The position numbers and the translations under genes were made by a program. From an uncultured Mycoplasma sp. (GTDB taxonomy: Bacteria; Bacillota_I; Bacilli_A; RF39; UBA660): DNA of 64,000 nt. Location of the stretch: the NCBI GenBank assembly GCA_902493595.1, contig CABUPU010000004.1, forward strand, positions 9,958 through 73,957. The letters run 5' to 3'. Below, piece after piece: positions 2,099 through 60,317 of this stretch. Within the stretch, counting starts at the first letter, position 1; each line of letters begins with the position of its first letter. The notes under the pieces are model-generated. The model searched no databases. It was given only the letters and a program-made list of their open reading frames with translations, and had not been told where the DNA came from.

Positions 2099-2479
2099 AA
2101 ACTATTTCACCTCATTAAATACAATGTTTTTCTCGTAAACTTACATCATATTAATTATATCACGTATAATGTTAAACATAAAGATTTTATAACTATGCTA
2201 AAGGTGTATCAAAAATTGCTTAATAGTTCTAAAGCCCTTTAATATAAACAAAAATGAAAGTTTTAGTTCTCTTCAGGGGGCATGCTCTCTTCAGTTAGAA
2301 GAGGCCAAATTGTGTTAAACCCTTTAAATACGGGCCTTTTTATATTGGCATAAACCGTCATTTACCGTGGTTTTTAGTATTTTTTGTACCTAAATTGTAC
2401 CTAAAAAAGACAGTAGTTTTATTTCCACTGCCTTCTCGGATAATTTGATTATACCATTTTTATTGATTAATATCAATCG

Positions 2480-2836
2480 TTAAAAAGATCTGCTTCTATT
2501 AAAGATATATCCTACCAATATGCATGAGGCTACATATAAAACTATAAACATAATTATAAATACTGTTATGTTAGATATTAGATATCCTAATATTGTAATT
2601 AGTGCTGTAACATAACAATAACTTATTAAATAGCCAAAGCTTCCAAATGCAGGTTCATCTACTCCTTTGGTGTATCCACATCCAGTTAGTATATATGCAC
2701 AGGAATGCAAGATAGTACCACCAATAAATATGTTAAATAAGTCAGCATATACTTCACTACCTATTATATTTATATAAGGATTTGGTAGAACAAACTGTCT
2801 TATTAATGCACTAATCAAATGAATAAACTTATACAT
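2480..2836 (-). CDS. small polytopic membrane protein (3-4 TM), unknown function; translationally coupled to the upstream 886-aa gene
   Basis: 118 aa, strongly hydrophobic. There is a 2-nt gap to the stop of 2839..5499. A terminator hairpin plus U-run follows at ~2408-2440 on the minus strand. Confidence 0.5.
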   Translation of the reverse strand: MYKFIHLISALIRQFVLPNPYINIIGSEVYADLFNIFIGGTILHSCAYILTGCGYTKGVDEPAFGSFGYLISYCYVTALITILGYLISNITVFIIMFIVLYVASCILVGYIFNRSRSF

Positions 2837-2838
2837 TA

Positions 2839-5499
2839 TTATTCATCTCCTTCTTTTATAACAAACTTGTAGCATTTTGAATTTGGGATTTTTCTTATTG
2901 AAGGAGATATAAATAATTTAAAAACACAATTTCCTTTTAGATATTCTATTTGATCTTCAACACTTCCTTTTTCCTCTAACCATTTAGTGTTCTTTTGTAT
3001 TTCATTTCTTGCACTTGTATTTGTTGAACAGTCTATAAGGTCATAATATACTCCATTTAAATAAGTACCTGACTCTTTTATATCTGGTTCATACATATCA
3101 ACCCTTGGTAAATCTTTTTTCTTAATTAAATAGATATCTCTTGCTTTAGGTATTTTTATTAAATCAATCTTTCTATTATTTATATCGATAGTTTTATCGT
3201 CAAAATTATTTAAGTTTAAAATTCGCCAATTGGATGGGCTTGTAATAATTACATATTTTTCCTTTTCGTTCAAGCCATCTATATATTTTACAAAGTCTTC
3301 CTTAATAACCTCTGCTATACTATCTAATTTTTTTAAATAATCTTTTGAAATTCCAGTAAGTATAGCACGTCCATAATCCTTGGAAATATTATCTAATCCA
3401 TAAACCTCATCAAAAAATAATTCTCTTCCCATTATTTGATTAATTCCAAATAATCTTTTATTTCTTTTATTAATAATTGAATACTTATTATTATCTTTTA
3501 AATATGATGTCAATTCATTTCCATTTTCTATCTCCTTAAAAATAATTTTTTTGAAACTCTCAGTTTTTTCTGAACTTATTTTGTTATTCTTAATATATTC
3601 TGCTTCAGCTTTTTTACATTCTTCCACTATTTTTTCTAAAACACTTATTAAAGATGAATTGTTGAAATTAACATCTAATACTGCCTCTAGCTTACTTTTC
3701 TCATCTGACTTCACTATATCTAATAATCTTTCATAAAAATATTTATTATCCTTTGAAATCAATTCAGAATTTATATCATCTGAATTTGAATATCCTATAC
3801 CAAACACATAAATGAATTCTTTCAAAATAAATATGTCGTCAACATGAATTCCGGACCATGAATTCCTATATTCTTTATTCTCAAATCTAAAATCAAAATG
3901 ATAATATACATCATGGACATTAGAAATAAAATTGTAATATTTTTTAAAATATTCTATAGCTTCATTTTGACTATAAAAATCTACAAAATTACTCTTAACA
4001 TAATTTATTAGCTTCTTTAATTCATCTTTATCTTCTTCATTAAATACATCCTTATTTGATAGAATAATTAACCCATATATAAACCCAAACGAAAATTGAA
4101 TCTTAATAATATCGTATGAATCAGGTTCACCATCAATAAATCCATTATAATCAAAAATAACATTATTAAATAAATCATTAATAGACTTGAATTCTTTTTT
4201 TATTATTAAATCAAACAAGAAATTCATTAAATTTGATAGTAAAACATCATAATATATAGAATCACTATTCTCTTTTATAGAATAGTAATCATACCTAAAT
4301 AATGAATTAGTAAAATCATATGATGTCTTTCTAACATCATCAGTAATTTCTAACTGTTCAGTATAACAATAATAAATATAGTTACTTAAAAACCTGTATC
4401 TTTCATAATCCTCATTAGAATAAGCTAAACTAGCTAACGTGCTTAAAAAATTTGCTAACTCTTTATTTTTATGTATATCTTTATAATATTTAATATATAT
4501 TTTTCTTATATATTCATATGAAATATCTAATAAAGATCTCATATTATTTTTATATAAAAAATTATAAAAATTAAATAATCTACTATCAGAATCAAAATTA
4601 TCATCTATATTAGTTTCTGCTAAAGAAAATAAATCATTAATTATCAAGTTAATTTCATTATCAAGATATGGAATACTATCATTTAATAAACATGAATTTC
4701 TTATACTGTCTTCATAATTTATGATTTCGTTTTTGCAATAAGCAACTGTCACACCTCTATTTATTTTTTCTCCACCTTTTAGTTTAAGAATTATTAAAGG
4801 ATCTATATATACTATAAGTTCTTTTCTTCTTCTGTTTTCTTCTTCTATCTTATCTATTATCGCTTGTAATGATCTACAACTATATGATTTAAAGATTCCA
4901 CTTTTATTTGCTTTTATTGGAATATAATCATCAATATTTTCTACATCAAAAGAAAAATATTTTTTATTGTCTTTCACAAATTTATCTATAGATTCATTTT
5001 TCAATTTCTTTTTTGAATTTTTAATGTTTCTATTATGAATTTCTATAAGTCTTTTTTCAATATATTTATCATATTCAGCAGAAAAATAGTCACTATCAGT
5101 ATTAAGTTTGATAGCTATTCCAAAAAGTTTAATTGTCAACCAAATAGAACGACAAATAAAAATATTTAATAACAATTCTACTACAAAAAATAAAATTTTG
5201 AATAAATCTGCACATTCTTTATTATATGGTATTATCTCTTTTATGATGCATAGTGATAATATAAGGATTGAAAAAGTCATGATACCTTTCATTCTTGTTT
5301 TTTCTAAAACAAATCTTTTGTGTGTTTCAACCTTCTTATCATTCATCGTCTCTGCAATAAATATTATAATTGCTACTAATACTCCGACTATCCCAACAAA
5401 CGCATCTATTCTCACACTTCCATTTAAAGGTTCAAAAATATTTACGTTCATCCAAATAATAAAATTATAAACATTTTTCATAAATTCTTCTATATTCAT
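2839..5499 (-). CDS. large membrane-anchored protein of unknown function (N-terminal ~4 TM helices, ~750-aa soluble region with no recognisable catalytic motif)
   Basis: 886-aa ORF with its own -10 TATAAT and a strong RBS GGAGGTAAAAG-ATG. No Walker A and no classical nuclease motif. A possible Rx4H (RLIEIH) sits after the TM block. Confidence 0.5.
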   Translation of the reverse strand: MNIEEFMKNVYNFIIWMNVNIFEPLNGSVRIDAFVGIVGVLVAIIIFIAETMNDKKVETHKRFVLEKTRMKGIMTFSILILSLCIIKEIIPYNKECADLFKILFFVVELLLNIFICRSIWLTIKLFGIAIKLNTDSDYFSAEYDKYIEKRLIEIHNRNIKNSKKKLKNESIDKFVKDNKKYFSFDVENIDDYIPIKANKSGIFKSYSCRSLQAIIDKIEEENRRRKELIVYIDPLIILKLKGGEKINRGVTVAYCKNEIINYEDSIRNSCLLNDSIPYLDNEINLIINDLFSLAETNIDDNFDSDSRLFNFYNFLYKNNMRSLLDISYEYIRKIYIKYYKDIHKNKELANFLSTLASLAYSNEDYERYRFLSNYIYYCYTEQLEITDDVRKTSYDFTNSLFRYDYYSIKENSDSIYYDVLLSNLMNFLFDLIIKKEFKSINDLFNNVIFDYNGFIDGEPDSYDIIKIQFSFGFIYGLIILSNKDVFNEEDKDELKKLINYVKSNFVDFYSQNEAIEYFKKYYNFISNVHDVYYHFDFRFENKEYRNSWSGIHVDDIFILKEFIYVFGIGYSNSDDINSELISKDNKYFYERLLDIVKSDEKSKLEAVLDVNFNNSSLISVLEKIVEECKKAEAEYIKNNKISSEKTESFKKIIFKEIENGNELTSYLKDNNKYSIINKRNKRLFGINQIMGRELFFDEVYGLDNISKDYGRAILTGISKDYLKKLDSIAEVIKEDFVKYIDGLNEKEKYVIITSPSNWRILNLNNFDDKTIDINNRKIDLIKIPKARDIYLIKKKDLPRVDMYEPDIKESGTYLNGVYYDLIDCSTNTSARNEIQKNTKWLEEKGSVEDQIEYLKGNCVFKLFISPSIRKIPNSKCYKFVIKEGDE

Positions 5500-5636
5500 C
5501 TTTTACCTCCAATCAAAAAAAGAGCATATTCCATCTTAAAAATGAAACACACTCTATTATTTAATATATATTATAGCATTTTTTTATAATGTTTTAAATA
5601 ATTTTATATATTATTATGTAGTATATAGTTTTTTTA

Positions 5637-7082
5637 TTAAACTTGATTTATAAGATTAATTAGGCTATTAACTCTATTTAATATTTTTTCTTGTTCTTCA
5701 AATGGAGGCAAAGGAATATACATATTTTTTAAAATATCAAATGGTGGAATATTCTTTATAGCTGTTCCCTTACCTTTTTCATTTGCCTCTTTTTTTAATA
5801 CATAATCAAAATATAATAAGAAGAAGTCTCTATAATTATTATCAAATAAAGTGATTTTCATAAGTGCTTGATTAATAATACCTACTCTAGCTTCTTTTGG
5901 CATTACATATGTTTCGCCAATTGTTCCAGCACATGATACTATTATATCATTTGGTTCTACAGAAAAAGATTTCATAGATTCATATTTTTTTCTAGAAATA
6001 TAATAATCTCCCAATGTGTAATCTTTTTTTATTGCATTTTGCTGCTCATAAACTTTAATTGCATCTTCACTATATGGAATAAACATAGATTTAGTTAAAG
6101 AACTTCCAAAAGGGCCTTTTTTATATATACCTATATTACCCAATCTAACCCATATCCAATTTTGAGGAATAGAATATGGAACATTATTTGAATTTATTTC
6201 CATTACTTTTTTATCTTTCTTTAAATTATGTCCATTTCTAAATTCACTTTCTATTTTAAAAACATCAATTTGTTTATCTAATGGATTATTCTTTATTAAT
6301 TCACCGTGAATAGCTTTATCAAATATAAGTATTTTCAGTTTTTCTTTTAATTTTTGAACTCTACCAATACTCTTTTCCAATTCATTTATTAATTCAAATG
6401 TTTTATCAATCTTTTCACATAATTCTTTTTGATATTCAATATCAGGAATGCAAATTGGAGTATTAATAATTATTTCTCGAGATATATTAGGTTGTGCTCC
6501 TCCAATGCCCGCATTAATAAAATAATCCCTTAATGATAATAAATAATAAAATAAATATTTTGATTCTATACCATAATATATATTACAAGAACAACATGCT
6601 TGATTAGTAGTTAATTCAATTTCTGATATTCCTAGTTTTCCAATTGTTGCACCATACATAGCAATCATAACATCACCGGGATGAACAAATTTTAAAGAAC
6701 ACTCTTTTAATGCTTTTTCAGTAATTTTTTCTTCAGTATTATTTATATATCCATCATTGAGTTCACCAGTTTTAAGCCATGCTATAGTACCATTATTATA
6801 ATATTCTTCATTACTTCTCAATGGAGTTGCACCTGCACCCCAACTTCCAATATTTCCTAGTCTATCCCATACCCAATTTGTTGGAGATTTATATATTTTT
6901 TCATCATCAGTTATATCTTCATCTAATTTATCTTTCTTTATTTTTTTCTGATTAATGAGATCATTTCTTATTCCATCATATTTTTCTTTAATATCTGAAG
7001 ATAGCTGTTTTCCATCATTTGGTAATAATTGACCACTAAAGGCCATCTGAAGAATCTTTTTTCTTAGCTTACTTACATTCAT
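5637..7082 (-). CDS. hsdS: type I restriction-modification specificity subunit HsdS (two target-recognition domains)
   Basis: 481 aa with two repeated halves and conserved central and C-terminal coiled-coil spacer regions. It sits immediately downstream of hsdM. Confidence 0.8.
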   Translation of the reverse strand: MNVSKLRKKILQMAFSGQLLPNDGKQLSSDIKEKYDGIRNDLINQKKIKKDKLDEDITDDEKIYKSPTNWVWDRLGNIGSWGAGATPLRSNEEYYNNGTIAWLKTGELNDGYINNTEEKITEKALKECSLKFVHPGDVMIAMYGATIGKLGISEIELTTNQACCSCNIYYGIESKYLFYYLLSLRDYFINAGIGGAQPNISREIIINTPICIPDIEYQKELCEKIDKTFELINELEKSIGRVQKLKEKLKILIFDKAIHGELIKNNPLDKQIDVFKIESEFRNGHNLKKDKKVMEINSNNVPYSIPQNWIWVRLGNIGIYKKGPFGSSLTKSMFIPYSEDAIKVYEQQNAIKKDYTLGDYYISRKKYESMKSFSVEPNDIIVSCAGTIGETYVMPKEARVGIINQALMKITLFDNNYRDFFLLYFDYVLKKEANEKGKGTAIKNIPPFDILKNMYIPLPPFEEQEKILNRVNSLINLINQV

Positions 7083-7084
7083 AT

Positions 7085-8560
7085 TTATTCTCCATTAATC
7101 AACAAATCTAACTTTGATACAATATTTGTAATATTATTTGTTTCTTTTTGTATTTCACTAAATAATTCTTCAATTGTAATATCATCTAAATCATCATCAT
7201 CAGTTATCCATTTTATATCTAAATTAAACTTATTATTCTTAATGTCATCATATGAAAATTTTCTCCATCTTCCATTTGGATTTTCTTCTGACCAAGTTTC
7301 AGTTCTATCATGAATATTGTCTGGATTAAAACACTTAACAAAATCGTCTAAATCTTTATTTTTTATTGGCTTTTTCTTTAAAGTAAAATGCATCCCAGCT
7401 CTTAAATCATATATCCAAACTTCTTTTGTTTGTATTTCTTTAGACGCAGGTTTATTATCAAAAAATACGACATTTGCTTTCACTCCAGGTTTATAAAATA
7501 TGCCTGTTGGCAATCTTAAAATTGTGTGTAAATTGGTTGTTTCCATTAGTTTTTTTCTAATAATCAATCCTCCTGATCCTTCTTCAAATAATACATTATC
7601 AGGTAATACAACAGCTGCTTTTCCATTAATCTTTAACAAAGTATGAATATGTTGAACAAAATTAAATTGTTTATTAGAACTTGTAGTCCAAAAATCTTGT
7701 CTATTATAAACTAAATCCTCATCTTCTTGTTCTCCATCTTCATTTGTTATTGTTAAGGATGCTTTCTTACCAAATGGAGGATTAGTTAAAACATAGTCAA
7801 ATCTTTCACCTGGATCGGATAATAACGCATCATTTCTTGTTATTGGTGATTTACCATCAATGTCACTTATATTATGCATAAATAAATTCATTAAACATAA
7901 TCTATACGTACTTTGAACTATTTCCCATCCTCTAAAGGTACTATATTTTAAGAAATTTTTATCCTTTTCATTTAAATCATAATTATCCTCAATAAACTCT
8001 TTTGATAATAATAGAAAACCACCAGAACCACAACATGGATCTACTATGGTTTTATTTGGTTCAGGTCTTATGCATCTTACCATTGCATCAATAACTGGAC
8101 GAGGTGTGAAGTATTGACCTGCTCCACTTTTTGTATCTTCTGCAATTTTTTGAAGTAATCCTTCATAAATATCACCTTTAACATCTGAAGATAATGCAGT
8201 CCATGTTTCGCCGTCGATCATAGTAATTATTTTAGATAGCATTGCAGGAGTAGATATCTTATTTATTGCTCCTGAATATATTTCCCTTAACATACCATCT
8301 TGTTCTGATAATGACTCTAAAATGCCATTATAATATTTAAATAATTCTGCACCTTTTTTTGATTTTAATTCATCCCAACTGCAATTATCAGGTAACTTAA
8401 TTCCTTTTTCAAATGGTGGTTTATTATATTCATCTATCATTTTTAAAAATAATAAATATGTTAGTTGTTCAAGATAATCTTGATTGGAAACACCATCATT
8501 CATTAGGACAGTTGCCATGCTCCATACTTTTTTATTAATTGTTGAAGTTCCCTCACTCAT
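7085..8560 (-). CDS. hsdM: type I RM N6-adenine DNA methyltransferase HsdM
   Basis: N-terminal HsdM_N-like region, SAM motif 'DPCCGSGGFL' and catalytic 'NPPFG'. Confidence 0.9.
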   Translation of the reverse strand: MSEGTSTINKKVWSMATVLMNDGVSNQDYLEQLTYLLFLKMIDEYNKPPFEKGIKLPDNCSWDELKSKKGAELFKYYNGILESLSEQDGMLREIYSGAINKISTPAMLSKIITMIDGETWTALSSDVKGDIYEGLLQKIAEDTKSGAGQYFTPRPVIDAMVRCIRPEPNKTIVDPCCGSGGFLLLSKEFIEDNYDLNEKDKNFLKYSTFRGWEIVQSTYRLCLMNLFMHNISDIDGKSPITRNDALLSDPGERFDYVLTNPPFGKKASLTITNEDGEQEDEDLVYNRQDFWTTSSNKQFNFVQHIHTLLKINGKAAVVLPDNVLFEEGSGGLIIRKKLMETTNLHTILRLPTGIFYKPGVKANVVFFDNKPASKEIQTKEVWIYDLRAGMHFTLKKKPIKNKDLDDFVKCFNPDNIHDRTETWSEENPNGRWRKFSYDDIKNNKFNLDIKWITDDDDLDDITIEELFSEIQKETNNITNIVSKLDLLINGE

Positions 8561-8573
8561 TTTTTAAAACCTC

Positions 8574-17938: not shown

Positions 17939-17947
17939 TTGGCCTCC

Positions 17948-18778
17948 TTAATAATTTGTAATAATAACTTCCTCTACTTTACCTCTTTTATTTCCATTTG
18001 CGTTAATACTTCTTTTAGCATCGATTACATGTATATTAAAACCTATATATAATTCATTTATTAAAGAAGTATTATGATTTGATAACATTACTTTTACACC
18101 TTTATTATCTAACTTTTTAAATACACTTGCAAGTCTTTTTTGTTCCTCTTTATCAAAACCAGTATCTGTATAACTATTAAATGTATGTGTATCTGAATCA
18201 TATGGAGGATCAATATATACAAAATCTCCTTCTTTAGCACTTTCTAAAGAAGTTTCAAAATCCTCACATAAAACTTTAATATCATTCATACTAAGATAAT
18301 TACTTACAGTTATTAAATTATTTCCATCATAAGTATTAACTTTATCTTTTTTTCCAAAAGGAACATTAAATTCATTTTTGCTATTAACTCTATAAAGTCC
18401 ATTAAAACACGCTTTATTTAAATAAATAGTTCTTGCAGCTCTAGTATAGTCAGATAATCTATTAAATGTTTTTTTATTTCTATCTTTATTTCTCATTTCA
18501 TAATAAAATTCTTCATTATGTTTAGCTTCAAAACTATTTAATGAGGCACATAACTTTTTAAACTTATCTTCATCTTTCAAACAACTATAAACATTCATAA
18601 GTTCTTTATTAGAATCATTTATAACAGCTTTTTTTGGTGATAATTCAAAAAGAAGTGCTCCTCCCCCTACAAAAGGTTCATAATATGTATCAAAACTTTC
18701 TGGAACATATTTTTTTAGTTCATTAATTATTTGTCTTTTTCCACCAGCCCATTTTACAAATGGTTTTCCTTTAATCAT
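17948..18778 (-). CDS. dpnM: Dam-family N6-adenine DNA methyltransferase DpnM-like (GATC)
   Basis: 'FVKWAGGKRQII', 'FVGGGALLFEL' and 'YIDPPYDSD' (D12 class). Confidence 0.85.
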   Translation of the reverse strand: MIKGKPFVKWAGGKRQIINELKKYVPESFDTYYEPFVGGGALLFELSPKKAVINDSNKELMNVYSCLKDEDKFKKLCASLNSFEAKHNEEFYYEMRNKDRNKKTFNRLSDYTRAARTIYLNKACFNGLYRVNSKNEFNVPFGKKDKVNTYDGNNLITVSNYLSMNDIKVLCEDFETSLESAKEGDFVYIDPPYDSDTHTFNSYTDTGFDKEEQKRLASVFKKLDNKGVKVMLSNHNTSLINELYIGFNIHVIDAKRSINANGNKRGKVEEVIITNY

Positions 18779-18851
18779 AATTTCATCCTTTTCCTACTTA
18801 TTTAGTATAACATGAATAAGAAATTTCTTAAATAAAAAATAGAAAAATTTG

Positions 18852-18958
18852 CAAAGTACGCATTTTTTGAAATATAATTTTTGCCTAACTTATGCTGAAA
18901 AAACACTATTTTTTAGTGCAAACTGTCAAACAAAAAAATCTCTTTCGAGATTTTAATT
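18852..18958. repeat. ~106-bp direct repeat copy 2; begins at the stop codon of the Cys/His-rich gene
   Basis: See 16221-16326; it contains the same terminator hairpin. Confidence 0.7.
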
Positions 18959-19208
18959 AGCATCTTCTATCGTAAATATTTTCTACAACATTTTCTTCAC
19001 AACACGTATTACATGGAGTAAAAGTATGTTTATAAATATGATGATTAATTATTCTAGTATTACAAGGTTTAATATGAGGTACTTCATAGCAAATATATCT
19101 ATGACACACCCTTTCCTCTGGACACTCATAAACTGGTTCACATGTACATCCCATCATATTTTCTACTTTACCCATATCTTCCATAGCAGGTCTTTTATCA
19201 CAATTCAT
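18957..19208 (-). CDS. Cys/His-rich small protein, possibly CotD-like spore coat protein
   Basis: 'HHIYKHTFTPCNTCC' resembles B. subtilis CotD His/Cys-rich repeats (HVHYFPHTFS...CC). cotD neighbours gpsB/rnpB in B. subtilis. Confidence 0.3.
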   Translation of the reverse strand: MNCDKRPAMEDMGKVENMMGCTCEPVYECPEERVCHRYICYEVPHIKPCNTRIINHHIYKHTFTPCNTCCEENVVENIYDRRC

Positions 19209-26797: not shown

Positions 26798-26873
26798 AAT
26801 CTCTCCGTAAATATTTTAACATAATTTTATATTAAAAAAAAGGACATATAGTCCTAGATTGTTTTAAAATAAA

Positions 26874-27611
26874 TTATTTCTTAATATCTTCATTATTTAT
26901 ACTATCTTTAATAGATTCTGCTATTTTACCAACACTTTTAGCTATTGTTGGAGTAGCTTTATCTATCATTTCGTCTGCAATAGGCATAACCTGTTGTGCA
27001 TGAAATGCTGTTATTTTTCTTTTATTTGCTATATAGAATAAATTAATAGATATTCCTAAAGTAATCAATAAAATCATAACTGCAGGCATAAATTCAAATG
27101 TATTAAATATTAAATTTGAAGTTTTATCATTATCTTTTTGCTCTTCAACATTTTTTAATTCTTCTTTTAAAGTACAGTATTTAGAGGTTATTGCATTTGT
27201 TTTATATTCATCAAAATCACAATGAGGAAAACTTGGATCAAGTGCATTAATAATTATATATAAATCATATGCTTCACCACTTTGGTAATCTGGACTATCT
27301 TTAAGTCCTTTTGCTTTCAATTCTTCTTTTTTAGTTTCAAGAATAGTTTTTTCTTCATCGATTTGAGAATTTAAACTATTTATTCTTTCTTGTTTTTTTT
27401 GCTCTGTAAATTCAGTATTATTTGTATTAGATTTTGTTTTCATAAATGCTTTAGCAAATAAATACCCACTACCTAAAATACCCGCAACTAAAATAATTGT
27501 AGCAATAATTGTAATATTTCTTTTTACCTTTTTATACTTCTCTTCGCTTAAATATTCACTATTTCTCATAATCAAACTCCTTTCAATATCATTATAACAT
27601 TTAAAATACAA
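26874..27611 (-). CDS. hypothetical protein with coiled coil and two TM segments
   Basis: Hydrophobicity only. Confidence 0.35.
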   Translation of the reverse strand: MYFKCYNDIERSLIMRNSEYLSEEKYKKVKRNITIIATIILVAGILGSGYLFAKAFMKTKSNTNNTEFTEQKKQERINSLNSQIDEEKTILETKKEELKAKGLKDSPDYQSGEAYDLYIIINALDPSFPHCDFDEYKTNAITSKYCTLKEELKNVEEQKDNDKTSNLIFNTFEFMPAVMILLITLGISINLFYIANKRKITAFHAQQVMPIADEMIDKATPTIAKSVGKIAESIKDSINNEDIKK

Positions 27612-27681
27612 ATTTCAAACATAAAATTACCACTTTAAGTAAAAGTTATGTTAAATTTTTTGTTCCATAATATAACTAAAG

Positions 27682-27984
27682 GTGGTATTTATGATAAATG
27701 ATGAAAAACTAGATTTTAAAAGTATGCAAGTTTTAAGAGAAAGTAAAAAGATAACACAAGTTAAATTAAGTTTAATGGTAGGAGTTTCTCAACAAAGTAT
27801 AACATACTATGAAAGCAATACTCGTATTCCCTCATTGCCTGTAGCATTTAGAATCGCAAAAGCACTTGGAACAAGTGTTGAAGGATTGGTTAATAGCAAT
27901 GACATAATTGCTAAATATTATTCGTTATGTGAAGCAGATAAAGAAACTGTTAATAAAATAATTGAAACATTATATAATAAATAA
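27682..27984 (+). CDS. XRE-family HTH transcriptional regulator
   Basis: 'VKLSLMVGVSQQSITYYESNTRIPSL'. Confidence 0.6.
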   Translation: MVFMINDEKLDFKSMQVLRESKKITQVKLSLMVGVSQQSITYYESNTRIPSLPVAFRIAKALGTSVEGLVNSNDIIAKYYSLCEADKETVNKIIETLYNK

Positions 27985-28068
27985 ATTTTAAAGCAACTTT
28001 AATCATATTTATTTTGACTTAATTAGAAAGGAAAATTAATTGCAAGTTTATAATTACTTATACAAAAT

Positions 28069-28102
28069 AAAACTACTTTCAGTTTAATTTGAAAGTAGTT
28101 TT
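28069..28102. terminator. bidirectional rho-independent terminator
   Basis: AAAACTACTTTCA-gtttaatt-TGAAAGTAGTTTT, a perfect 13-bp stem flanked by A/T runs on both sides. Confidence 0.6.
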
Positions 28103-28314
28103 ATTTATGATATATAATAATTGAAACAACATAGTAATAGAAAAAATAACCCTTACGGATTACTTTTCTGCCTAAGGGATCCCGTACTTAACATACGGTT
28201 AGAACATTCGCACATATAATGCTTGGTTCGATACATCTTAAAGGTCTTCTAAAGATATTAGATCATTTCTTTTAGAATTTACAACTAATTCTTCAAAATT
28301 TTTTCTTTTTCCAA

Positions 28315-29253
28315 TTATTTAATACTTTTTGTTAATGAAAGTTTTTGTACATTATTTTTATTATTTTCTAACTGAATACTTGGATTATAGATAAGCTTAT
28401 CATCCTCAAACCAAGAACCACACACAATTCCGCTTCTATGTATTATTGCAACATTAAGATATGTTGGTCTACGATTTTGAATATGAGTTGCTAGTTTATC
28501 ACCTACACAAATACGAACTGGTATGCCTTGATAATTAGCATTTAAGTATACATTTCGTCTTCTTATATCAGTTTCATTTGATATATTTAGTTTTTTTAGT
28601 GTGTAATTAAAAACATCATCTGTTTCTTTATTGCCAGGTAAAAGACGATTTAAATATAGTGGAATTCCTAATCTAGAATATTCATCGATATCAAATGATT
28701 CATCAATTGTAACTCTTAAGCAAAGTTTTTCTCCAAAAAGAATTTTAGCCTGTTCAATAGTCAAAATTGGTTTTGTGGCTTTGAATATTTTTTTGTTTAT
28801 TTCTTCGTTAACAGAATTGCGATGTAAATTTATATGATTAATTTTAGTTATACCACTAAAATAATCTTCGTTAAGTGCTGCACCATTAGTATTCCAGTTT
28901 ATATATGAATCGGGAAAGTAAGCTTTTATTAAATCTATTAAACTATTAAAATCTTTAGAATTAAGTGTCCCACCAGTAATAGCAACATTTTTTATATTAG
29001 GAAACTCCCTTAATACTTTTTCGCATATTTTCAGAAAATTTGCATTATCTATTGAATTTTTTCTAAGATATGTATCAATACAATATTCACAATTTGCATA
29101 ACAAGGTTCTGGTAAATTTATTACTATTGAATTAACAAAATCTAAACAAGGAATGCCAAAAACTTCACGAAAATGTGCATTAAAAGTTTCTATTCCTAGT
29201 TCTTTTTGAGCCGCTAATAATTCTTCATTTGCCTGATAATCTGAATCAATCAT
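28315..29253 (-). CDS. radical SAM domain protein (CxxxCxxC after a ~50-aa N-terminal extension); no SPASM domain
   Basis: 'CYANCEYC' plus the 'ITGGTLN' glycine-rich SAM motif. It is an isolated gene between tRNA-Leu and a convergent HTH gene. Confidence 0.65.
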   Translation of the reverse strand: MIDSDYQANEELLAAQKELGIETFNAHFREVFGIPCLDFVNSIVINLPEPCYANCEYCIDTYLRKNSIDNANFLKICEKVLREFPNIKNVAITGGTLNSKDFNSLIDLIKAYFPDSYINWNTNGAALNEDYFSGITKINHINLHRNSVNEEINKKIFKATKPILTIEQAKILFGEKLCLRVTIDESFDIDEYSRLGIPLYLNRLLPGNKETDDVFNYTLKKLNISNETDIRRRNVYLNANYQGIPVRICVGDKLATHIQNRRPTYLNVAIIHRSGIVCGSWFEDDKLIYNPSIQLENNKNNVQKLSLTKSIK

Positions 29254-29321
29254 AAAAATGCCTACTTTTTATGAGATATTATATCATAATTTTTTATAAA
29301 ATAAATAAATAAATATTTAAT

Positions 29322-29353
29322 CAAAATAAAACTCGAACTAAAAAGTTCGAGTT
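29322..29353 (-). terminator. terminator downstream of tRNA-Leu
   Basis: AACTCGAAC-taaaaa-GTTCGAGTT with a U-run on the minus strand. Confidence 0.55.
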
Positions 29354-35027: not shown

Positions 35028-35104
35028 TGGCGGGGTATATCAACTGGCTAGATAGTTCGGTTCATACCCGAAATGTTGGGGGTTCGAGTCCCTCCCCCGC
35101 TACC
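35028..35104 (+). tRNA. tRNA-Met (anticodon CAT), elongator type
   Basis: GGCGGGG-TA-TATC-AACTGGCTA-GATA-G-TTCGG-TTCATAC-CCGAA-ATGTT-GGGGG-TTCGAGT-CCCTC-CCCCGCT-A-CCA. It is close to B. subtilis elongator tRNA-Met (G1-U72). Confidence 0.85.
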
Positions 35105-35115
35105 AAATAAATTTA

Positions 35116-35139
35116 TGTCAAACATTAATGTTTGACTTT
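35116..35139 (+). terminator. terminator after tRNA-Met
   Basis: Perfect palindrome GTCAAACATTAATGTTTGAC followed by TTT. Confidence 0.55.
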
Positions 35140-35275
35140 AATAAATAACTAATTCTAGTAAGGGTTAGTTTTTTTATACTATTAAAACTGTTTAAAAATC
35201 AATTAAGAAAAATAAATTTTTATTTAAAAAGTATTGCATATTGTCAATAAATAGTGTATATTACTTATTGAGATG

Positions 35276-35316
35276 TGCCTAGGAAACTTTAGAAGCCCTA
35301 GGTCTTTTTCATTTTA
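35276..35316. repeat. 40-bp direct repeat copy 1 with a CCTAGG-palindrome hairpin (terminator-like), 12 nt upstream of the abi RBS
   Basis: GTGCCTAGGAAACTTTAGAAGCCCTAGGTCTTTTTCATTT; compare 36250-36289. Confidence 0.65.
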
Positions 35317-35328
35317 TAGGAGGTAAAA

Positions 35329-36216
35329 ATGGCTAAAGAATTTAAATCAACAAATGAATTATTAGAAATAATTAATTCAAAAGGTTTATTAGTAAAAGAT
35401 AATAATAATTTCAGATATCTAATTGGAAAGTACTCATATTATTCAATAGTAAATACTTATAAGCTGATATTTAAAATTGGAAATAACTATAAAAATAACG
35501 CTTCGTTCGAAGAAATATTTGCAATGTATAAGTTTGATAAGAACTTAAAAATAATAATGCTTAAATATATTCTTGAAATTGAAGCTGTTATTAAAACAAA
35601 AATTGCTAATCTATTTGCTGAAAAGTATGGATTAGAAGATTATTTAAATATTAACAATTTTGATTTAAAAGATGATAATTCTAATTTAGAACATATAGAA
35701 AAATTAATTGAAGAAATAAAAAATGAAATTGATAAAGGAAATGGTAAACATGATGCAATAACTCATTATATGAATAAGTATGGATTTGTTCCACCTTGGG
35801 TTGTTACTAAAATATTATCTCTTGGAACTATTAGTAAATTTTATGGTTTAATGAAACAACAAGATAGACAAGAAATAAGTAAGCAATTTCATATAAATGA
35901 TAGAATATTAAAAAATATTCTTGGTAATTTAACATCAGTTCGTAATATAGCAGCTCACGATGATAGATTATATACCTATAGAAGTACTTTCTATATTAGA
36001 TTAGACAAAACTAAAAAATCACCAGATAAAGTATTACATACAAATATGTATATAATAATTAAATCGTTGGAATTATTATTAGAAAACGATCAAGCAATTG
36101 AAATGAAAAACTTAATTATAAAGGAATTAGATATATTAAAAAATAGTTTAACTTCAATAAAAATTGATGAAGTATTAAAGGTAATGGGATTCGATAAGAA
36201 CTATTACACTGCATAA
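35329..36216 (+). CDS. abortive infection protein, Abi_2 family (AbiD/AbiD1/AbiF-like)
   Basis: 295 aa with the conserved 'SVRNIAAHDDRLYTYR' motif of Abi_2. It is a tRNA-adjacent, single-gene islet. Confidence 0.6.
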   Translation: MAKEFKSTNELLEIINSKGLLVKDNNNFRYLIGKYSYYSIVNTYKLIFKIGNNYKNNASFEEIFAMYKFDKNLKIIMLKYILEIEAVIKTKIANLFAEKYGLEDYLNINNFDLKDDNSNLEHIEKLIEEIKNEIDKGNGKHDAITHYMNKYGFVPPWVVTKILSLGTISKFYGLMKQQDRQEISKQFHINDRILKNILGNLTSVRNIAAHDDRLYTYRSTFYIRLDKTKKSPDKVLHTNMYIIIKSLELLLENDQAIEMKNLIIKELDILKNSLTSIKIDEVLKVMGFDKNYYTA

Positions 36217-36249
36217 ATATTGATTCACAGCATATAATAATAATGAAAA

Positions 36250-36289
36250 GTGCCTAGGAAACTTTAGAAGCCCTAGGCCTTTTTCATTT
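36250..36289. repeat. 40-bp direct repeat copy 2 (GCCTAGG-N13-CCTAGGC hairpin + T-run), terminator of abi
   Basis: GTGCCTAGGAAACTTTAGAAGCCCTAGGCCTTTTTCATTT. Confidence 0.65.
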
Positions 36290-36435
36290 ATCTCATTATA
36301 AAAGTAATGATAAACATGATGAAAAATGAATACTAATATAAGATTAATTGTTTATGAAATATTTTTGAAGTTTCAAACATACAACGTATTTGTACGGAAT
36401 AAATATTTAATAGATAGAAATATCTATTTTTTTTT

Positions 36436-48315: not shown

Positions 48316-48334
48316 TTAAATTAATTAATTTCAA

Positions 48335-49189: not shown

Positions 49190-49334
49190 GTATCCTCCTT
49201 TTCAAAATAATTATATCTTCTTTTTTATTAAAAGTATATATACTTTAGATTAATAATTAATATATCAATAATCTTTTTTACCATTTTTGTGTATTTACAC
49301 ACTTTTGGTAAATTGGTATTCATAATAATTTTAT

Positions 49335-49365
49335 TCTAAAAAAATGCGGCCTGTAAAAAGGCCGC
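49335..49365 (-). terminator. rho-independent terminator of recG
   Basis: GCGGCC-N8-GGCCGC with a U-run on the minus strand. Confidence 0.55.
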
Positions 49366-49518
49366 TCAGGGGGTTTTGGTTTGACTATTCCTCACATTAT
49401 AATTCGTAAGGTTTTAGTCAGGCATAGGTTTTTATTTGTCCTATGCTAATTAAATGATAATATGATTTTTTAAAAAAGTCAATTATTTTCTTTACACTTT
49501 ACTAATGCTTTACACTTT

Positions 49519-51492: not shown

Positions 51493-51720
51493 TTTACCTC
51501 CAACCTAATTGTATCAAACTTTATAAAAAAAGCAAATATAAAGTTTTTTAAAAAAATATGTAAAATGAGTGTAAAGTTAATTGACTTTTTATCATATATG
51601 CTTTAGTATATTAATTACCAAATCACTTAAGAAGGCGATTTGGTGCTAGTATCACACTAGTCAACCCCTTTTTATTCTTTGAGGCCCTAAAGGCCTCGTT
51701 TTTTTATGAAAAAAAGAATA

Positions 51721-55047: not shown

Positions 55048-55059
55048 TTTCTATCACCA

Positions 55060-55087
55060 CTTTAATTATATAAAAAAAACTAGCATT
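55060..55087 (-). terminator. terminator of eno
   Basis: AAACTAG-catttta-CTAGTTT with a U-run on the minus strand. Confidence 0.5.
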
Positions 55088-55090
55088 TTA

Positions 55091-56308: not shown

Positions 56309-56314
56309 AATTAC

Positions 56315-56947
56315 CTACCAAAATATCTTTGTTATTTCATTTGCTCTTTTCTTAAGAAGTATTAAATCTGTTATATCAAGAATACTTGAAAGCACTAAAA
56401 ATGTTCCAATTACTTGAGTAACCGTAAGTGCGGAAAATGGATTTGATAATACTAATATTCCAAATACCATAAGCATTACTCCAATTACAAAAGTAATTAA
56501 CCAAGATGAATCATCACCTATTTTAAACCATACACCATAAGTTACTTTATTTGCTCCGAATACAATTAAATATAATCCTAAACAAATTGTTAAAAATGAT
56601 GTAACTGAAAATGGAACTAATATAATAATTGCTCCGATTAAAACAAGTATTATTCCAAAAAGCAAATTAAGTGAATAAAGTTTTGCACCATTTCTTGATA
56701 TAAACTTATAAATTGTATTAATACCTGAAAGTGCAAATAAAGCTCCAGTTATAACACCAATTAACTTATTAGACATTTCTGGCATAAATATAAGTACTGC
56801 TCCAATTAAAGCAATAACAATTGAAGTTACTATAGACATCATAATAAATTTATTAAATCTATCACTTATTGTCTCTCTAACTATTCTTCCCATATTTTTT
56901 TCACATCCTAACATATATATTATAATAATTTTTTTTACTAATTGCAA
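56315..56947 (-). CDS. DUF308 / HdeD-like repeat membrane protein
   Basis: Repeated TM pairs with GxxxG-type motifs. Confidence 0.45.
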   Translation of the reverse strand: MQLVKKIIIIYMLGCEKNMGRIVRETISDRFNKFIMMSIVTSIVIALIGAVLIFMPEMSNKLIGVITGALFALSGINTIYKFISRNGAKLYSLNLLFGIILVLIGAIIILVPFSVTSFLTICLGLYLIVFGANKVTYGVWFKIGDDSSWLITFVIGVMLMVFGILVLSNPFSALTVTQVIGTFLVLSSILDITDLILLKKRANEITKIFW

Positions 56948-56996
56948 TTATTTATTTTTAATGATATAATATTCTCTTTAAAAAAGGAGGATAAAT

Positions 56997-58235
56997 ATGC
57001 AAATAAGAACAATTACTTTAAAAGAATTTCAAGATTTTTCTGAAAACTGGGAACATCAAAATTTTCATCAAAGTATTAGTTATGCTCTTTTAAAAAGTGA
57101 AGAGGGCTATGAATATGAAATGATTGGCTATTTTGATGGTGATTCAATAGTTGCTAGTGCTCTTGTACTTGTTCAAATGATTAATAGTTATCTATATGCA
57201 TATGTTCCCGAAGGCTTTTTAATTGATTATAAAAATGAAAACTTACTAAATAATTTTACTAAAGATTTAATAAACTTCTATAAAAAAGAGGGTATTGCTT
57301 TTATAAGAATAAATCCTACAATACCTATTGCTAAAATAGATAATAAAACAAAAAATCCTATATATAATGATAACTACCGTATAATAGAAATATTAAATAG
57401 ATGCGGTTATATAAAAATAGATACCTCTAAAGTATTTACTTCAATACTACCTACTTATGAAGCAATTGTAAATTTAGATAGTTTTAATATAAATAATTTA
57501 AATAAAAATGTTAGAAATAAAATTAGAAAATGTGAAAGAAAAGGTTTAATTATAGAAAAATCTGATGCACTAAGTATGGATAAATTATATAAATTTATTA
57601 AAAATAAAATACATAAAGATATGTTTCATTATAGTGATTATTATAATATTTTTAATAAAGAAAATGCTATTGATTACTTTTTAGTTAAAATAGATAATGA
57701 AAGTTTAGCAATAAATAGTCAAAAAGCTTATGAAGAAGAAAAAGAAAAAAATGAACTTTTAAGTAAAAAACTTCTTAAAGTACCAAGTGAAAAAAATATT
57801 AATAAAAAGATGAATTCTGATAAAGCACTTCTTTGTTTAAAAGAGGATATACTTCTTTCAAATAAATATCTTGCTAATAATGAAGATAATTATATAGCGG
57901 GAGCTCTTGTTATAAAATGCAAAGATAAAATATCTATTTTAGTAAGTGGTTATGATAAAAAATATCAATCATTTTCACCAAATTATTTCTTATTTTATAA
58001 AATATTAATGAACTATAAAAATAATTATAAATTTGCCTCTTTAGGGGGTGTCTCTGGTAACTTTTCAAAAGATAGTAAATATTATGGTCTTGACAATTTT
58101 AAAATGGGATTTAAACCAGATATATATGAATATATTGGAGAATTTGATTTAATATTAAATAAAATAAATTATTATTTCTTAAATAAAAAGAATTTAGTAG
58201 AAAAAGAATTTCAAAAAAATAAGTATCTAAAATAA
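56997..58235 (+). CDS. FemAB-family aminoacyl-tRNA-dependent peptidyltransferase (putative peptidoglycan branch-peptide synthesis)
   Basis: ~410 aa GNAT-tandem architecture with a central coiled-coil insertion ('EEEKEKNELLSKKLLK'), as in FemA/FemB/MurM. Confidence 0.5.
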   Translation: MQIRTITLKEFQDFSENWEHQNFHQSISYALLKSEEGYEYEMIGYFDGDSIVASALVLVQMINSYLYAYVPEGFLIDYKNENLLNNFTKDLINFYKKEGIAFIRINPTIPIAKIDNKTKNPIYNDNYRIIEILNRCGYIKIDTSKVFTSILPTYEAIVNLDSFNINNLNKNVRNKIRKCERKGLIIEKSDALSMDKLYKFIKNKIHKDMFHYSDYYNIFNKENAIDYFLVKIDNESLAINSQKAYEEEKEKNELLSKKLLKVPSEKNINKKMNSDKALLCLKEDILLSNKYLANNEDNYIAGALVIKCKDKISILVSGYDKKYQSFSPNYFLFYKILMNYKNNYKFASLGGVSGNFSKDSKYYGLDNFKMGFKPDIYEYIGEFDLILNKINYYFLNKKNLVEKEFQKNKYLK

Positions 58236-58242
58236 CAGATAC

Positions 58243-58446
58243 TTATTTTTGTAATAATAAATAAAGTTTTAAATATATAGAAATATCTTCATTATTATTT
58301 AATAAAATATTATATAAATCTATAGTCCTAATTCCCATTTTATATGCAATATCTACCATATTTATTTTATTACTAGCAATTAGTTTTAAACATCTATTAG
58401 ATATATTAGTTATAAAATCATTTTTTTCTTTCATTAGTTTCTCCAT
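58243..58446 (-). CDS. small protein with a possible HTH
   Basis: 67 aa; 'MVDIAYKMGIRTIDLYNILL' is HTH-like. Confidence 0.25.
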   Translation of the reverse strand: MEKLMKEKNDFITNISNRCLKLIASNKINMVDIAYKMGIRTIDLYNILLNNNEDISIYLKLYLLLQK

Positions 58447-58527
58447 AAATTACTTCATTTATTAATTTTTTATTTTTATTTATAAAATTAAAAGTTAAAT
58501 CAATTATATTATTTTTATTACCAAAGG

Positions 58528-59556
58528 CTAATATATAAATATTATTATTATATTCAATGTTAGTGCTTGCTCACCCAAAGTATTAACTCTTATTATATAA
58601 TTACTATCTATATTAACCTTTACTGGTTCAATACCTTTTTTATAGTCTAAATTACCCATCTGGAGTTTATTTAATAGTTCTATTGGTATATTTATATCTG
58701 TTAAGTTAATAACTTCATTAGGCATCTCAAATACGTTTTCTTTAGGGATAATTTTTTTACATTCTTCATAAATATCATACATACTATCAAGTAATTTAGT
58801 TATTTCTTCATCCGAGGATATATTAGAGTTAATCATTATATCTAACTTTCTTTCGAGTGTTTGTAAAACAGTTAATAAAGTAATAAAATTAACTTCAGGG
58901 TACATAGCATTATCAAAATCTAAATATGGTTTTGCAAGTGATAATATACTTACTACTGCTTCATTATTTAAATAATCTTTATATAATAATTCATTACTTT
59001 TAAGAAATGCTATTATAGAAATATATTTTTCATTATGAAAAAAGTTCTCTTTTACTTTGTTATCTCTTTTTGGAAGTTCAACTTTAGAAAGAGATGCATC
59101 AAAATTATTCTCAACAGGTTTTCTTTTATTAGGTTTATAATTAGATAAAACTATATTTATTTCACTAATAGAAAATTTATGTTTCATCATAAATTTAGTT
59201 ATAAATGAATAATCAAGTGATCCATTATCAAAATCCTCTTTTAGATCAGATAGTTCATAATATCTTTTATCAACATTTTCAAAAATAGAATTATTTAATA
59301 TTGTTGATATAATAGAATCATATAGTGAAAATTCATAATAATCTTTTTCTGTTAAATTTTTACCCTCTATAATTAAATTTCTAAAATCATTTTTAAAGTA
59401 TTTATTATTTTCAGGGTAGTCTAAAAGAGGATATAATTTTTTTATATCCATCGAAGAAGTAAACTTTTTTAATATACCTAAAAAATTTAATTCGGATAAA
59501 ATCTCTTTATAATACTCTAATAAATAATTATTAAATTTGTCCATTGTATTTGTCAT
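58528..59556 (-). CDS. hypothetical protein (342 aa), no recognisable domain
   Basis: ORF only; accessory context next to the tuf-adjacent insertion. Confidence 0.35.
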   Translation of the reverse strand: MTNTMDKFNNYLLEYYKEILSELNFLGILKKFTSSMDIKKLYPLLDYPENNKYFKNDFRNLIIEGKNLTEKDYYEFSLYDSIISTILNNSIFENVDKRYYELSDLKEDFDNGSLDYSFITKFMMKHKFSISEINIVLSNYKPNKRKPVENNFDASLSKVELPKRDNKVKENFFHNEKYISIIAFLKSNELLYKDYLNNEAVVSILSLAKPYLDFDNAMYPEVNFITLLTVLQTLERKLDIMINSNISSDEEITKLLDSMYDIYEECKKIIPKENVFEMPNEVINLTDINIPIELLNKLQMGNLDYKKGIEPVKVNIDSNYIIRVNTLGEQALTLNIIIIFIY

Positions 59557-59575
59557 ATACTACTCTACCCTAGAT

Positions 59576-59625
59576 AATTTTAACATAATATAATTAAAGT
59601 TGCAAATAAAAAAACCACGAAATTA
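59576..59625. repeat. ~50-bp direct repeat copy A (a degenerate copy of the tuf 3' terminator region)
   Basis: ATTTTAACATA..ATATAAT..GTTGCAAATAAAAAAACCACGAAATTA; compare 60268-60317. Confidence 0.6.
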
Positions 59626-59674
59626 CTTCAGTGATTTTTAAAATTTATTATACTTTTATATTTTTTAAATATGT

Positions 59675-60244
59675 TTAGTACCATTTTTGTAATTCGGGGT
59701 TTTCCCTATTTAATACTAATTTTTTTCCTTCCATTTTTGATGATTCATAGTACACATCACAAATACAGTCAAACTTTAACTCGTTATTACTACGACTTAT
59801 TTTAACACCTCTTTTTTGAAACTCATTATATATTTTTCTTAAATTAAAACCAACAAATTTGTTTAAAACTTCTTCCCATATATTATTTTTATATAAAATA
59901 CTTCCTCTTACATCATGTTCTAAAGAATATTCCTTGTTAAGAATAGAAAAAAATCTTGTTTTATCATTTTGTAAATTTGTAATTTTTAAAACATTATCAA
60001 TCCCTTTAAAAGTTGATAAATATTTAATTCTATATACCTTTGGAATAGGATTTCCAGCATTTTTATAAAACCATTTTTGTAATTGCTTTATGTTATCAAA
60101 AAATAATGGGCTTTTTTTATAAGTACTTGTATGTGCTGGAATATAAACATCACTATTTATTTCATCACTATAATAATACTCACCACCATCGTAAGATATT
60201 TCATAAGGAACAATATATAATAGTTCTATATCATTTTCATTCAT
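59675..60244 (-). CDS. hypothetical protein (189 aa), no recognisable domain; inserted between tuf and copy A of its terminator
   Basis: ORF flanked by duplicated terminator-region repeats. Confidence 0.35.
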   Translation of the reverse strand: MNENDIELLYIVPYEISYDGGEYYYSDEINSDVYIPAHTSTYKKSPLFFDNIKQLQKWFYKNAGNPIPKVYRIKYLSTFKGIDNVLKITNLQNDKTRFFSILNKEYSLEHDVRGSILYKNNIWEEVLNKFVGFNLRKIYNEFQKRGVKISRSNNELKFDCICDVYYESSKMEGKKLVLNRENPELQKWY

Positions 60245-60267
60245 ACCAAAACCTTCTTTCTTGCACT

Positions 60268-60317
60268 ATATTTTAACATATAATGGGTTGAGTTGCAAAT
60301 AAAAAAACCACGAAATT
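60268..60317. repeat. ~50-bp direct repeat copy B, including the tuf rho-independent terminator
   Basis: Minus transcript: CACGA-uuaauu-UCGUG followed by GUUUUUUUAUUUG. Confidence 0.6.

Follow-up and report, generated by a model that had tools for sequence, protein, structure and literature searches.

Duplicated terminator and promoter modules bracket strain-variable gene cassettes in an uncultured low-GC lineage of gut Bacilli

How do accessory genes that carry no recombinase come and go in the intergenic regions of a low guanine-cytosine (GC) genome? The question is raised by a 64,000-nt stretch of DNA (hereafter the window) from an uncultured Mycoplasma sp. (contig CABUPU010000004.1, positions 9,958 to 73,957), in which an initial annotation had described four accessory insertions, each placed immediately 3' of a terminator and each with a distal end that repeats the terminator region. 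We refer to these as L1, a 12-kb restriction-modification/toxin-antitoxin (RM/TA) island; L2, a DpnII cassette; L3, an abi islet; and L4, a single gene next to tuf. Their gene content was as described (hsdRMS with HigB/HigA-like genes, dpnM-dpnA-dpnB, Abi_2 and a 189-aa gene next to tuf, respectively). Three further cases found here are C5 to C7. The architecture is real, recurrent and mostly of a kind already published for RM systems (PMC2853133), and a new recombination mechanism is not established. Our joint reading, to which we give a probability of about 0.6, is that L2-L4 and C5-C7 are cassettes lying between duplicated regulatory modules, and that L1 is an integration hotspot.

Repeat pairs were present at all four of the original loci, at the coordinates first given. 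The L1 pair (2380-2406 and 14362-14388) was identical at 27 of 27 positions; the L2 pair (16218-16326 and 18849-18958) extended over 110 nt at 95.5% identity with one gap; the L3 pair (35266-35314 and 36241-36289) matched at 45 of 49 positions (92%), including 39 of the 40 that make up the hairpin core; and the L4 pair (59577-59639 and 60270-60330) covered ~62 nt. To assess chance, the best direct self-hits of the window were compared with those of 40 Markov-1 shuffles. The top five scored 173, 71.6, 64.4, 64.4 and 50.0 bits; four of them were the L1-L4 pairs, and the other was a local tandem hairpin repeat at 14231-14343. Shuffle maxima were 36.5-50.0 bits (mean 41), and the repeats at L2, L3 and L4 are clearly far above chance. 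That the repeats might be chance matches in AT-rich DNA or assembly artefacts gains something from the L1 27-mer and from a 26-nt repeat at C5, both of which score near the shuffle maximum. It is already refuted for L2-L4, at 64-173 bits against a shuffle maximum of 50, and since the same structures recur in many independent assemblies and every repeat falls on an indel junction, we give it almost no credence overall.

Contigs of the same species were plentiful in public metagenome assemblies, with sample names that point to the human gut. Forty-one loci at 97-100% identity, spanning 14.4-64 kb of the window, were fetched and served as a small pan-genome (numbered L001 upwards). A comparison of strains, of the kind that the initial annotation had proposed, was run on this set: chained alignments against the window were used to list all indels of at least 120 nt, and an overlapping junction was taken as a duplication. 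All four segments, L1-L4, were strain-variable. Junction duplications of 26-110 nt accompanied 6 of ~11 indel events in ~50 kb of this one species; two of the remaining events had only 4-6 nt of microhomology and the rest were substitutions. The recurrence of the architecture is thus strengthened by three loci absent from the original list: beside tRNA-Leu (C5), between recG and a patatin gene (C6) and between the enolase and PFOR genes (C7), with out-of-sample junction overlaps of 26 nt, 49 nt and 35-44 nt. Single-copy empty sites that align with both repeats were found for L3, L4 and C5, and at C6 and C7 it is the window that carries the empty allele. When insert proteins were screened with Pfam and PADLOC, no recombinase or transposase domain was found in any insert, and PADLOC returned nothing for the 886-aa, 118-aa, 151-aa, 189-aa, 342-aa, 245-aa and 550-aa proteins. 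The repeats were direct, different in sequence at each locus and, across the window and the fetched loci, confined to their own locus. They therefore show none of the inverted ends, fixed short duplication or multiple copies of insertion sequences (IS), miniature inverted-repeat transposable elements (MITEs) or other transposons, and the earlier statement that they do not form one IS or MITE family holds. What is duplicated is a whole regulatory module: a terminator hairpin, in some cases together with the promoter that serves the next gene. Hairpins followed by U-tracts fold, in the direction of transcription, within the repeats at L2, L3 and L4, and promoter hexamers lie within those at L4 and C5.

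The abi islet (L3, plus strand) exists in three alleles. In the filled allele, the Abi_2 (AbiD/F-like) gene (35329-36216) lies between a proximal repeat (35266-35314), which is an extended hairpin GCCTAGG..CCTAGG(T/C) with a T-run, and a distal repeat (36241-36289), which is the abi terminator (fold energy -18.9 kcal/mol, z = -4.7). Since the proximal hairpin stands between a promoter (35234-35262) and the abi ribosome-binding site, expression of abi is predicted to need read-through of the hairpin. In allele E1 (L021, L028 and L030), abi is precisely gone, a single hybrid hairpin is left and the promoter at 35234-35262 is kept without a gene, which reads as a deletion scar. In allele E2 (L024 and L026), the whole of a larger islet of 1286 nt (35111-36398) is missing. 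This islet adjoins tRNA-Met (35029-35105) and holds the promoter, both repeats and abi, and its E2 junction has a microhomology of only ~6 nt.

At L4 (minus strand), the proximal repeat (60270-60330) consists of the tuf terminator (AAAAATCACGA..TCGTGGTTTTTTT) and a promoter, TTGCAA-17-TGnTAAAAT, and ends exactly at the -10 element; the distal repeat (59577-59639) holds the terminator of the 189-aa gene and the promoter of the next gene. The 189-aa gene itself (ORF189, 59675-60244) belongs to no family. It lies between two copies of the repeat in seven of ten strain contexts, and the other three (L001, L004 and L005) have one copy and no gene. Between the copies, three blocks are identical (9/9, 24/24 and 10/10 positions, covering the stem arms, T-run, -35 and -10), the 24-nt block being the right stem arm, T-run and -35, whereas the loop of the hairpin and the spacer of the promoter have diverged heavily. 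Identity of the functional blocks beside a diverged loop and spacer suggests an old duplication of which both copies are functional and under selection. Two kinds of empty allele occur: the proximal hairpin is joined to the distal promoter spacer in L001 and L004, and L005 retains a proximal-type spacer, so the copies have recombined at two or more different points. Taken together, the single-copy hybrid alleles, the two L4 crossover points and the promoter left without a gene in E1 directly show repeat-mediated deletion. Tandem gene duplication was rejected as the origin of L4, ORF189 and the next gene not being paralogues. ORF189 is an orphan, represented by a single 90% cluster (22 sequences) among 5.8 billion clusters, with a local GC content of ~20%; the homologue search gave that one cluster and none outside the species, so that a donor context cannot be traced. 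The gene after the distal repeat (58528-59556) encodes 342 aa in the window and L002, and 380 aa in the other strains examined.

The three added loci, all on the minus strand, vary in which part of a module is duplicated. At C5, a 26-32-nt promoter repeat (AAAATTATGTTAAAATAT) occurs downstream of tRNA-Leu and its terminator (proximal copy 29276-29302; terminator 29323-29353) and again before the CCA-adding enzyme gene (distal copy 26811-26837). It is the -10 region of the promoter of that displaced gene and contains no hairpin. The 2.4-kb segment between the copies (26838-29275) encodes 312-aa, helix-turn-helix (HTH) and 245-aa proteins and is missing from L011, L012, L015, L016, L017 and L020, each of which keeps one hybrid copy. 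A third allele beside tRNA-Leu, in L013 (100-424, at ~26840 of the window), consists of a promoter, a GC-richer segment of ~110 nt and a terminator; the segment resembles a structured RNA, and a search of Rfam gave no match. At C6 (49292-49373), a small unit of promoter and terminator stands between recG and the patatin gene, and its terminator region is the repeated segment; in L039 a 334-aa AbiD-like gene is inserted between two diverged copies of that region (49-85 nt). The small unit (49338-49482; promoter TTGACT-17-TATCAT, with a strong terminator ~110 nt further on) resembles a small RNA or small-peptide unit, matches no Rfam family (best E-value 0.59) and is the landing site of both the Abi insertion in L039 and an AbiE insertion in L038. 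At C7 (55070-55105), the segment comprises the last five enolase codons and the terminator. In most other strains, a gene of 494-576 aa stands between enolase and PFOR, followed by a second copy of the enolase-end and terminator segment. This gene (for example L034 2432-4084) had no Pfam or PADLOC hit, and with its length varying across strains it may encode a hypervariable protein.

These loci bear on the proposal, made in the initial annotation, that recombination occurs preferentially at terminator hairpins. Hairpins might be a physical target through fork stalling or hairpin cleavage, with a break at the base repaired using foreign DNA and the extended hairpin duplicated in the process. 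A terminator does lie inside five of the six duplications, and at L2, L3, L4 and C7 the 5' edge of the repeat falls 0-3 nt from the base of an extended A-tract/stem/T-tract hairpin, a weak hint in this direction. However, intergenic regions here are only 43-330 nt long, so that any duplication of 26-110 nt must overlap a terminator or promoter and targeting of hairpins is not required to explain it. Moreover, the C5 repeat is a promoter with no hairpin, the C6 repeat begins 7-8 nt ahead of the stem and extends ~40 nt beyond the T-run, two indels at the same loci had merely 4-6 nt of microhomology, and six events afford no statistical power. Preferred recombination at hairpins is therefore not demonstrated, and we regard it as unlikely. 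A broader form, in which a recombinase-independent, hairpin-directed process drives most accessory-gene turnover in this reduced-genome lineage by duplicating a bidirectional terminator (A-tract, stem and T-tract) with the promoter, is a slightly longer shot still. Were it true, terminators would be generic landing pads and excision sites for single-gene defence cassettes, attC-like in function and built of ordinary regulatory DNA. Group IIC introns insert after terminators and were also considered; they were set aside, as the inserts contained no reverse transcriptase or intron RNA.

At L2 (minus strand), the repeats bound a strain-variable DpnII-type RM cassette (16321-18778) comprising dpnM (D12 methylase, 17948-18778), dpnA (N6_N4 methylase, 17165-17938) and dpnB (DpnII endonuclease, 16321-17190). 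The proximal repeat (18849-18958) is the intergenic module right after the stop of a CotD-like gene (18957-19208). Within it are the terminator AAAATCTC-GAAA-GAGATTTT with a T-run and another hairpin (CACTA..TAGTG), and its end falls on a -35-like hexamer, TTGCAA. The distal repeat (16218-16326) comes right after the dpnB stop and runs on into the promoter of a 132-aa gene (15739-16137); the onset of the repeat lies 0-2 nt past the stop codons of the CotD-like gene and dpnB. The DpnII allele with both copies occurs also in L016 and in L044, the latter from a separate representative genome. In L013, L014, L017, L019, L020, L042 and L043, the occupant of the slot is a 132-aa gene, which shares 66% identity with the next gene, and in these strains the repeat belongs to a tandem duplication of intergenic region and gene. 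The module is wholly missing in L011, L012 and L018, and is swapped for other genes in L015. As most relatives have a tandem paralogue in the slot, ordinary tandem duplication can also yield such repeats. The 132-aa gene downstream of the distal copy has an in-frame TGA in the window strain (tryptophan to stop), is intact in L013, L016 and L019, and is probably a recent pseudogene in the window strain. At the CotD slot L015 has no DpnII cassette; it carries one of DpnII type, diverged (77-79% nucleotide identity), at another variable position (13337-16252), along with an HTH gene and an extra 183-aa gene, so that the same RM type occurs at two loci within the species.

A cassette might alternatively have entered by homology, having brought a similar terminator or 3' untranslated region with it and recombined through a Campbell-type single crossover or by cassette exchange, in which case the repeats would never have been identical. 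That alternative occupants of L2 (DpnII or the 132-aa gene) lie between the same two repeats, as at the pneumococcal DpnI/DpnII locus (PMC3812788), fits such entry, as does L4, where the insert-proximal parts of both copies are unlike the empty allele and yet the 24-nt block is exact. Against it, there is no reason for a foreign gene to carry the intergenic region of its recipient, the origin of the duplication is only shifted, unexplained, to an earlier genome, and ORF189, lacking a homologue outside the species, offers no traceable donor context. The L2 copies are also closer to each other within a strain than orthologous copies are between strains, and in DpnII strains the left edge of the distal copy (TTAAAATCTCG) matches the proximal copy and not the paralogue-type copy. 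Such likenesses fit either gene conversion or the entry of DpnII having duplicated the upstream terminator region locally. Entry guided by homology seems improbable to us, about on a par with targeting of hairpins.

The largest insertion, L1, differs in kind, and here the claim of one pattern at four loci does not hold beyond the presence of a repeat pair: a gene is interrupted, att-type features are present, and the 27-mer contains no terminator. The placement of the insert 3' of a terminator that is repeated at the distal end is not confirmed for L1. All L1 features lie on the minus strand. Between the 27-mers (2407-14361) is a strain-variable defence island encoding a DUF7695 protein (13928-14131), a HigB-like protein (13485-13850), an HTH/M78 antitoxin-like protein (12431-13516), a MazF fragment (11810-12028), hsdR (8574-11357), hsdM (7085-8560), hsdS (5637-7082), an 886-aa protein with no Pfam or PADLOC hit (2839-5499) and a 118-aa membrane protein (2480-2836); the island yielded no recombinase domain. 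The 886-aa and 118-aa genes, with their upstream intergenic region (5491-5578), recur as a two-gene module in another island context (L044 12019-14321) and are a candidate for an uncharacterised defence pair. The two copies of the 27-mer follow two different terminators. The far copy (2380-2406; TTTTAGGTACAATTTAGGTACAAAAAA, on the minus strand TAGGTAC N4 TAGGTAC) begins in the T-run of the terminator (2403-2435) of the last island gene, and the near copy (14362-14388) lies ~55 nt downstream of an island-borne terminator (14443-14464). That hairpin is island DNA and not core genome. Homology of the window to other strains breaks off at 14462-14600 and not at the 27-mer. Between the near 27-mer and the DUF7695 gene, the tandem repeat noted above (14231-14343) consists of two 50-nt units, 88% identical and with a 63-nt period, each an inverted repeat (TCATTGAGAA...TTCTCAATGA) around two occurrences of GTGGCAAAA; the units could be an operator array or a small RNA.

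The near junction falls within a gene for a secreted Cys-rich protein, of which the window retains 37 codons of the 5' part (14466-14579) after a NUDIX gene and which is complete, at 149-196 aa, in L042, L043 and L044. The window stays homologous to the intact gene as far as 14473, and CCCCT-GAAGAGAGC (14459-14472), which follows, is island DNA. Host sequence ending in GGTTGTTCTTC thus meets CCCCT and GAAGAGAGC, written at the core as CTTC/CCCCT/GAAGAGAGC, and the intact gene has an imperfect palindrome at the breakpoint (TTGCTCTTC-AGATG-GAAGAAAG in L042 and L043, with a variant in L044). The L011 strain has other cargo at the same position, shares CCCCT with the window at the near junction before diverging, and carries at the far end of that cargo a truncated C-terminus of a tyrosine integrase (RIHDFRHS...LGH...Y.H). 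Beside this remnant are a perfect 9-5-9 palindrome, GCTCTCTTC-CCCCT-GAAGAGAGC, a terminator and two copies of TAGGTACC (TTAGGTACCAATTAGGTACC). Past the far 27-mer of the window, att-like remnants (2266-2306) include GGCCTCTTC-TAACT-GAAGAGAGC (2284-2306) and CCCCCTGAAGAGAAC (2266-2280), the latter also found upstream of a UvrD-like gene in L043. A variant form of the heptamer pair, TAGGTAC N4-5 TAGGTAC, occurs close to variable-region boundaries in L016, L019 and L011. Cargo at this position is unrelated across strains (type I RM, GmrSD, AIPR/Z1, AbiE-like, RloB/AAA and reverse transcriptase).

From these relatives we read L1 as a site-specific integration hotspot with layered islands, and the CTTC/CCCCT/GAAG-type junction is consistent with a putative core site. 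The 27-mer has tandem heptamers and lies ~70-120 nt from the putative cores; it is not the crossover site and is more like an arm-type site. We take it for a conserved island-end motif, possibly bound by protein as an arm site, and not for a host terminator that was duplicated. No copy of the L011 integrase fragment turned up when the window and the other loci were searched by tblastn, and a matching attR carrying the 3' part of the host gene was not found. The far flank of the hotspot (window 1-2098; L031 3447-6306) encodes a rare 151-aa protein and a 756-aa UvrD-like helicase; the helicase flank is common to L042 and L043, and the 151-aa gene is present in L042 and not in L043. These two genes may themselves be cargo of an older island. 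Genes with a CoiA domain close to the hotspot were weighed as a sign of competence and dropped, since they sit within variable DNA and their two alleles share only 70% identity.

The initial annotation had named the explanation of each case by a known site-specific recombinase as an outcome that would refute its proposal. At L1, with its integrase-type att features, this outcome applies; in the inserts at the other loci no recombinase was found. One could extend the L1 explanation to every locus, L2-L4 included, by supposing a site-specific recombinase acting in trans on hairpin palindromes as cores, like Xer/dif or integron attC, and terminator palindromes do superficially resemble cores. Yet the six repeats share no motif, are 26-110 nt long with imperfect copies, have crossover points that vary by strain and include a promoter-only repeat without a palindrome. 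Neither the open reading frames scanned (ORFs; window 1-19208 and every insert) nor, for called genes elsewhere in the window, the precomputed Pfam hits included an integrase or IntI domain. We consider a recombinase acting in trans very unlikely, well below the two preceding alternatives.

In the reading that we favour, accessory cassettes without a recombinase each lie between two copies of the local intergenic module. The copies recombine with each other, deleting the cassette precisely and leaving one hybrid copy, as seen in the alleles of L3, L4 and C5, and filled and empty alleles may be spread through the population by homologous recombination of the ordinary kind in core genes on either side. 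The duplication would have arisen when DNA was joined into a short intergenic region, with selection likely sparing only those events that left the upstream terminator and the downstream promoter intact; at L2 in other strains, the same repeat would have come from tandem duplication of the intergenic region with its gene. At L1, tyrosine-recombinase-type integration into the 149-196-aa gene may have built a multi-layered defence-island hotspot. Several points weigh against this reading. No insertion event was observed directly: every polymorphism could be a loss from an older filled state, and the origin of the duplications is inferred. Segments flanked by repeats are prone to deletion and would thus be over-represented among polymorphisms, an ascertainment bias. 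A clean single-copy L2 allele was not found among the relatives, in which the slot holds the paralogue or the whole module is missing. The divergence of loop and spacer between the L4 copies far exceeds the divergence between strains, so that the copies were perhaps never identical, which would fit homeologous import over target duplication. The L1 27-mer was equalled in one of the 40 shuffles and is borderline taken alone, and no integrase was found in or beside the island of the window (1-15000). Lastly, no strain lacking just 2407-14361 was found; look-ups with the DUF7695 and 151-aa proteins gave only the same strain or a 0.9-kb contig.

The closest published counterpart of L2-L4 and C5-C7 is the 'insertion with long target duplication' of RM systems (Nobusato et al. 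2000; Furuta, Abe and Kobayashi 2010, PMC2853133). In the latter survey, RM systems of all types were inserted without mobility genes between unique direct repeats of ~30 to >400 bp, in gene units of <20 kb, and where a related genome had an empty site, its single copy aligned with the repeats. The species were mostly naturally competent, and the 46-bp repeats in H. influenzae overlapped the 3' end of the upstream gene; the word 'terminator' is absent from that paper. Our inserts likewise are small (0.6-2.6 kb) and carry no mobility domain, with repeats longer than 30 bp at L2 (110 nt), L3 (49 nt), L4 (~62 nt), C6 (49-85 nt) and C7 (35-44 nt) and single-copy empty sites at L3, L4, C5, C6 and C7, L2 being without a clean one. 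C5 (26-32 nt) and L1 (27 nt) fall under the 30-bp threshold. Only the L2 insert contains both R and M genes, a gene content that was a screening criterion in PMC2853133 and not a mechanistic one; L3 and C6 carry Abi genes, and the functions of L4, C5 and C7 are unassigned. In contrast to the published cases, the bracketed segments here extend to Abi genes, an orphan gene, the probably hypervariable gene of 494-576 aa and the three genes of C5, the repeats are recognisable as terminator and/or promoter modules, and the host belongs to an uncultured low-GC gut lineage of Bacilli. A literature search on terminator-linked target duplication returned nothing specific.

Other known systems resemble single loci or single features. 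The DpnI/DpnII locus of S. pneumoniae (PMC3812788) has the gene order dpnM-dpnA-dpnB of L2 and one slot with alternative content, and exchange by flanking homology is plausible for both; at L2, however, the alternative is a 132-aa paralogue or nothing instead of a DpnI cassette, and direct repeats of 110 nt, copies of the terminator region upstream, bound the slot. Minimal mobile elements of Neisseria and core defence hotspots (for example PMC3787668) are likewise variable cassettes between core genes, have no mobility genes and come and go by homologous recombination, but they are defined by conserved flanking genes and not by duplicated intergenic modules. Integrase islands with tandem accretion at one att site share with L1 a location inside a gene, a putative CCCCT overlap with inverted half-sites, varied cargo, a truncated tyrosine integrase (in L011) and older att-like remnants distal to the island, whereas the island of the window has no integrase and its 27-nt repeat lies off the putative cores. 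Integron cassettes, in which an ORF with an imperfect hairpin is inserted next to a similar hairpin, offer a likeness in possible mechanism only: no IntI was seen in the scanned ORFs or Pfam hits, the hairpins here are T-run terminators, and the locus-specific repeats reach into promoters.

The genome in which this takes place is, as judged from its coding content, one that uses the standard genetic code. Genetic code 4 was weighed in view of the ~25% GC content of the window and the label 'Mycoplasma sp.', and was dropped as ORF sets were near-identical under both tables and cell-wall genes (a Mur ligase and a penicillin-binding protein) were present. The window contains a class B RNase P RNA, and Rfam identified nothing in it beyond RNase P and two tRNAs.

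Our findings extend the long-target-duplication architecture from RM systems to Abi and orphan genes and to uncultured gut Bacilli, where it accounts for the majority of small indels in the region examined. For metagenome-assembled genomes they supply a reading rule: a terminator present in duplicate is a flag for a strain-variable defence gene. That the duplicated DNA is itself a terminator/promoter module explains how cassettes can be gained and lost without disturbing their neighbours, and how their presence and absence can toggle between strains.

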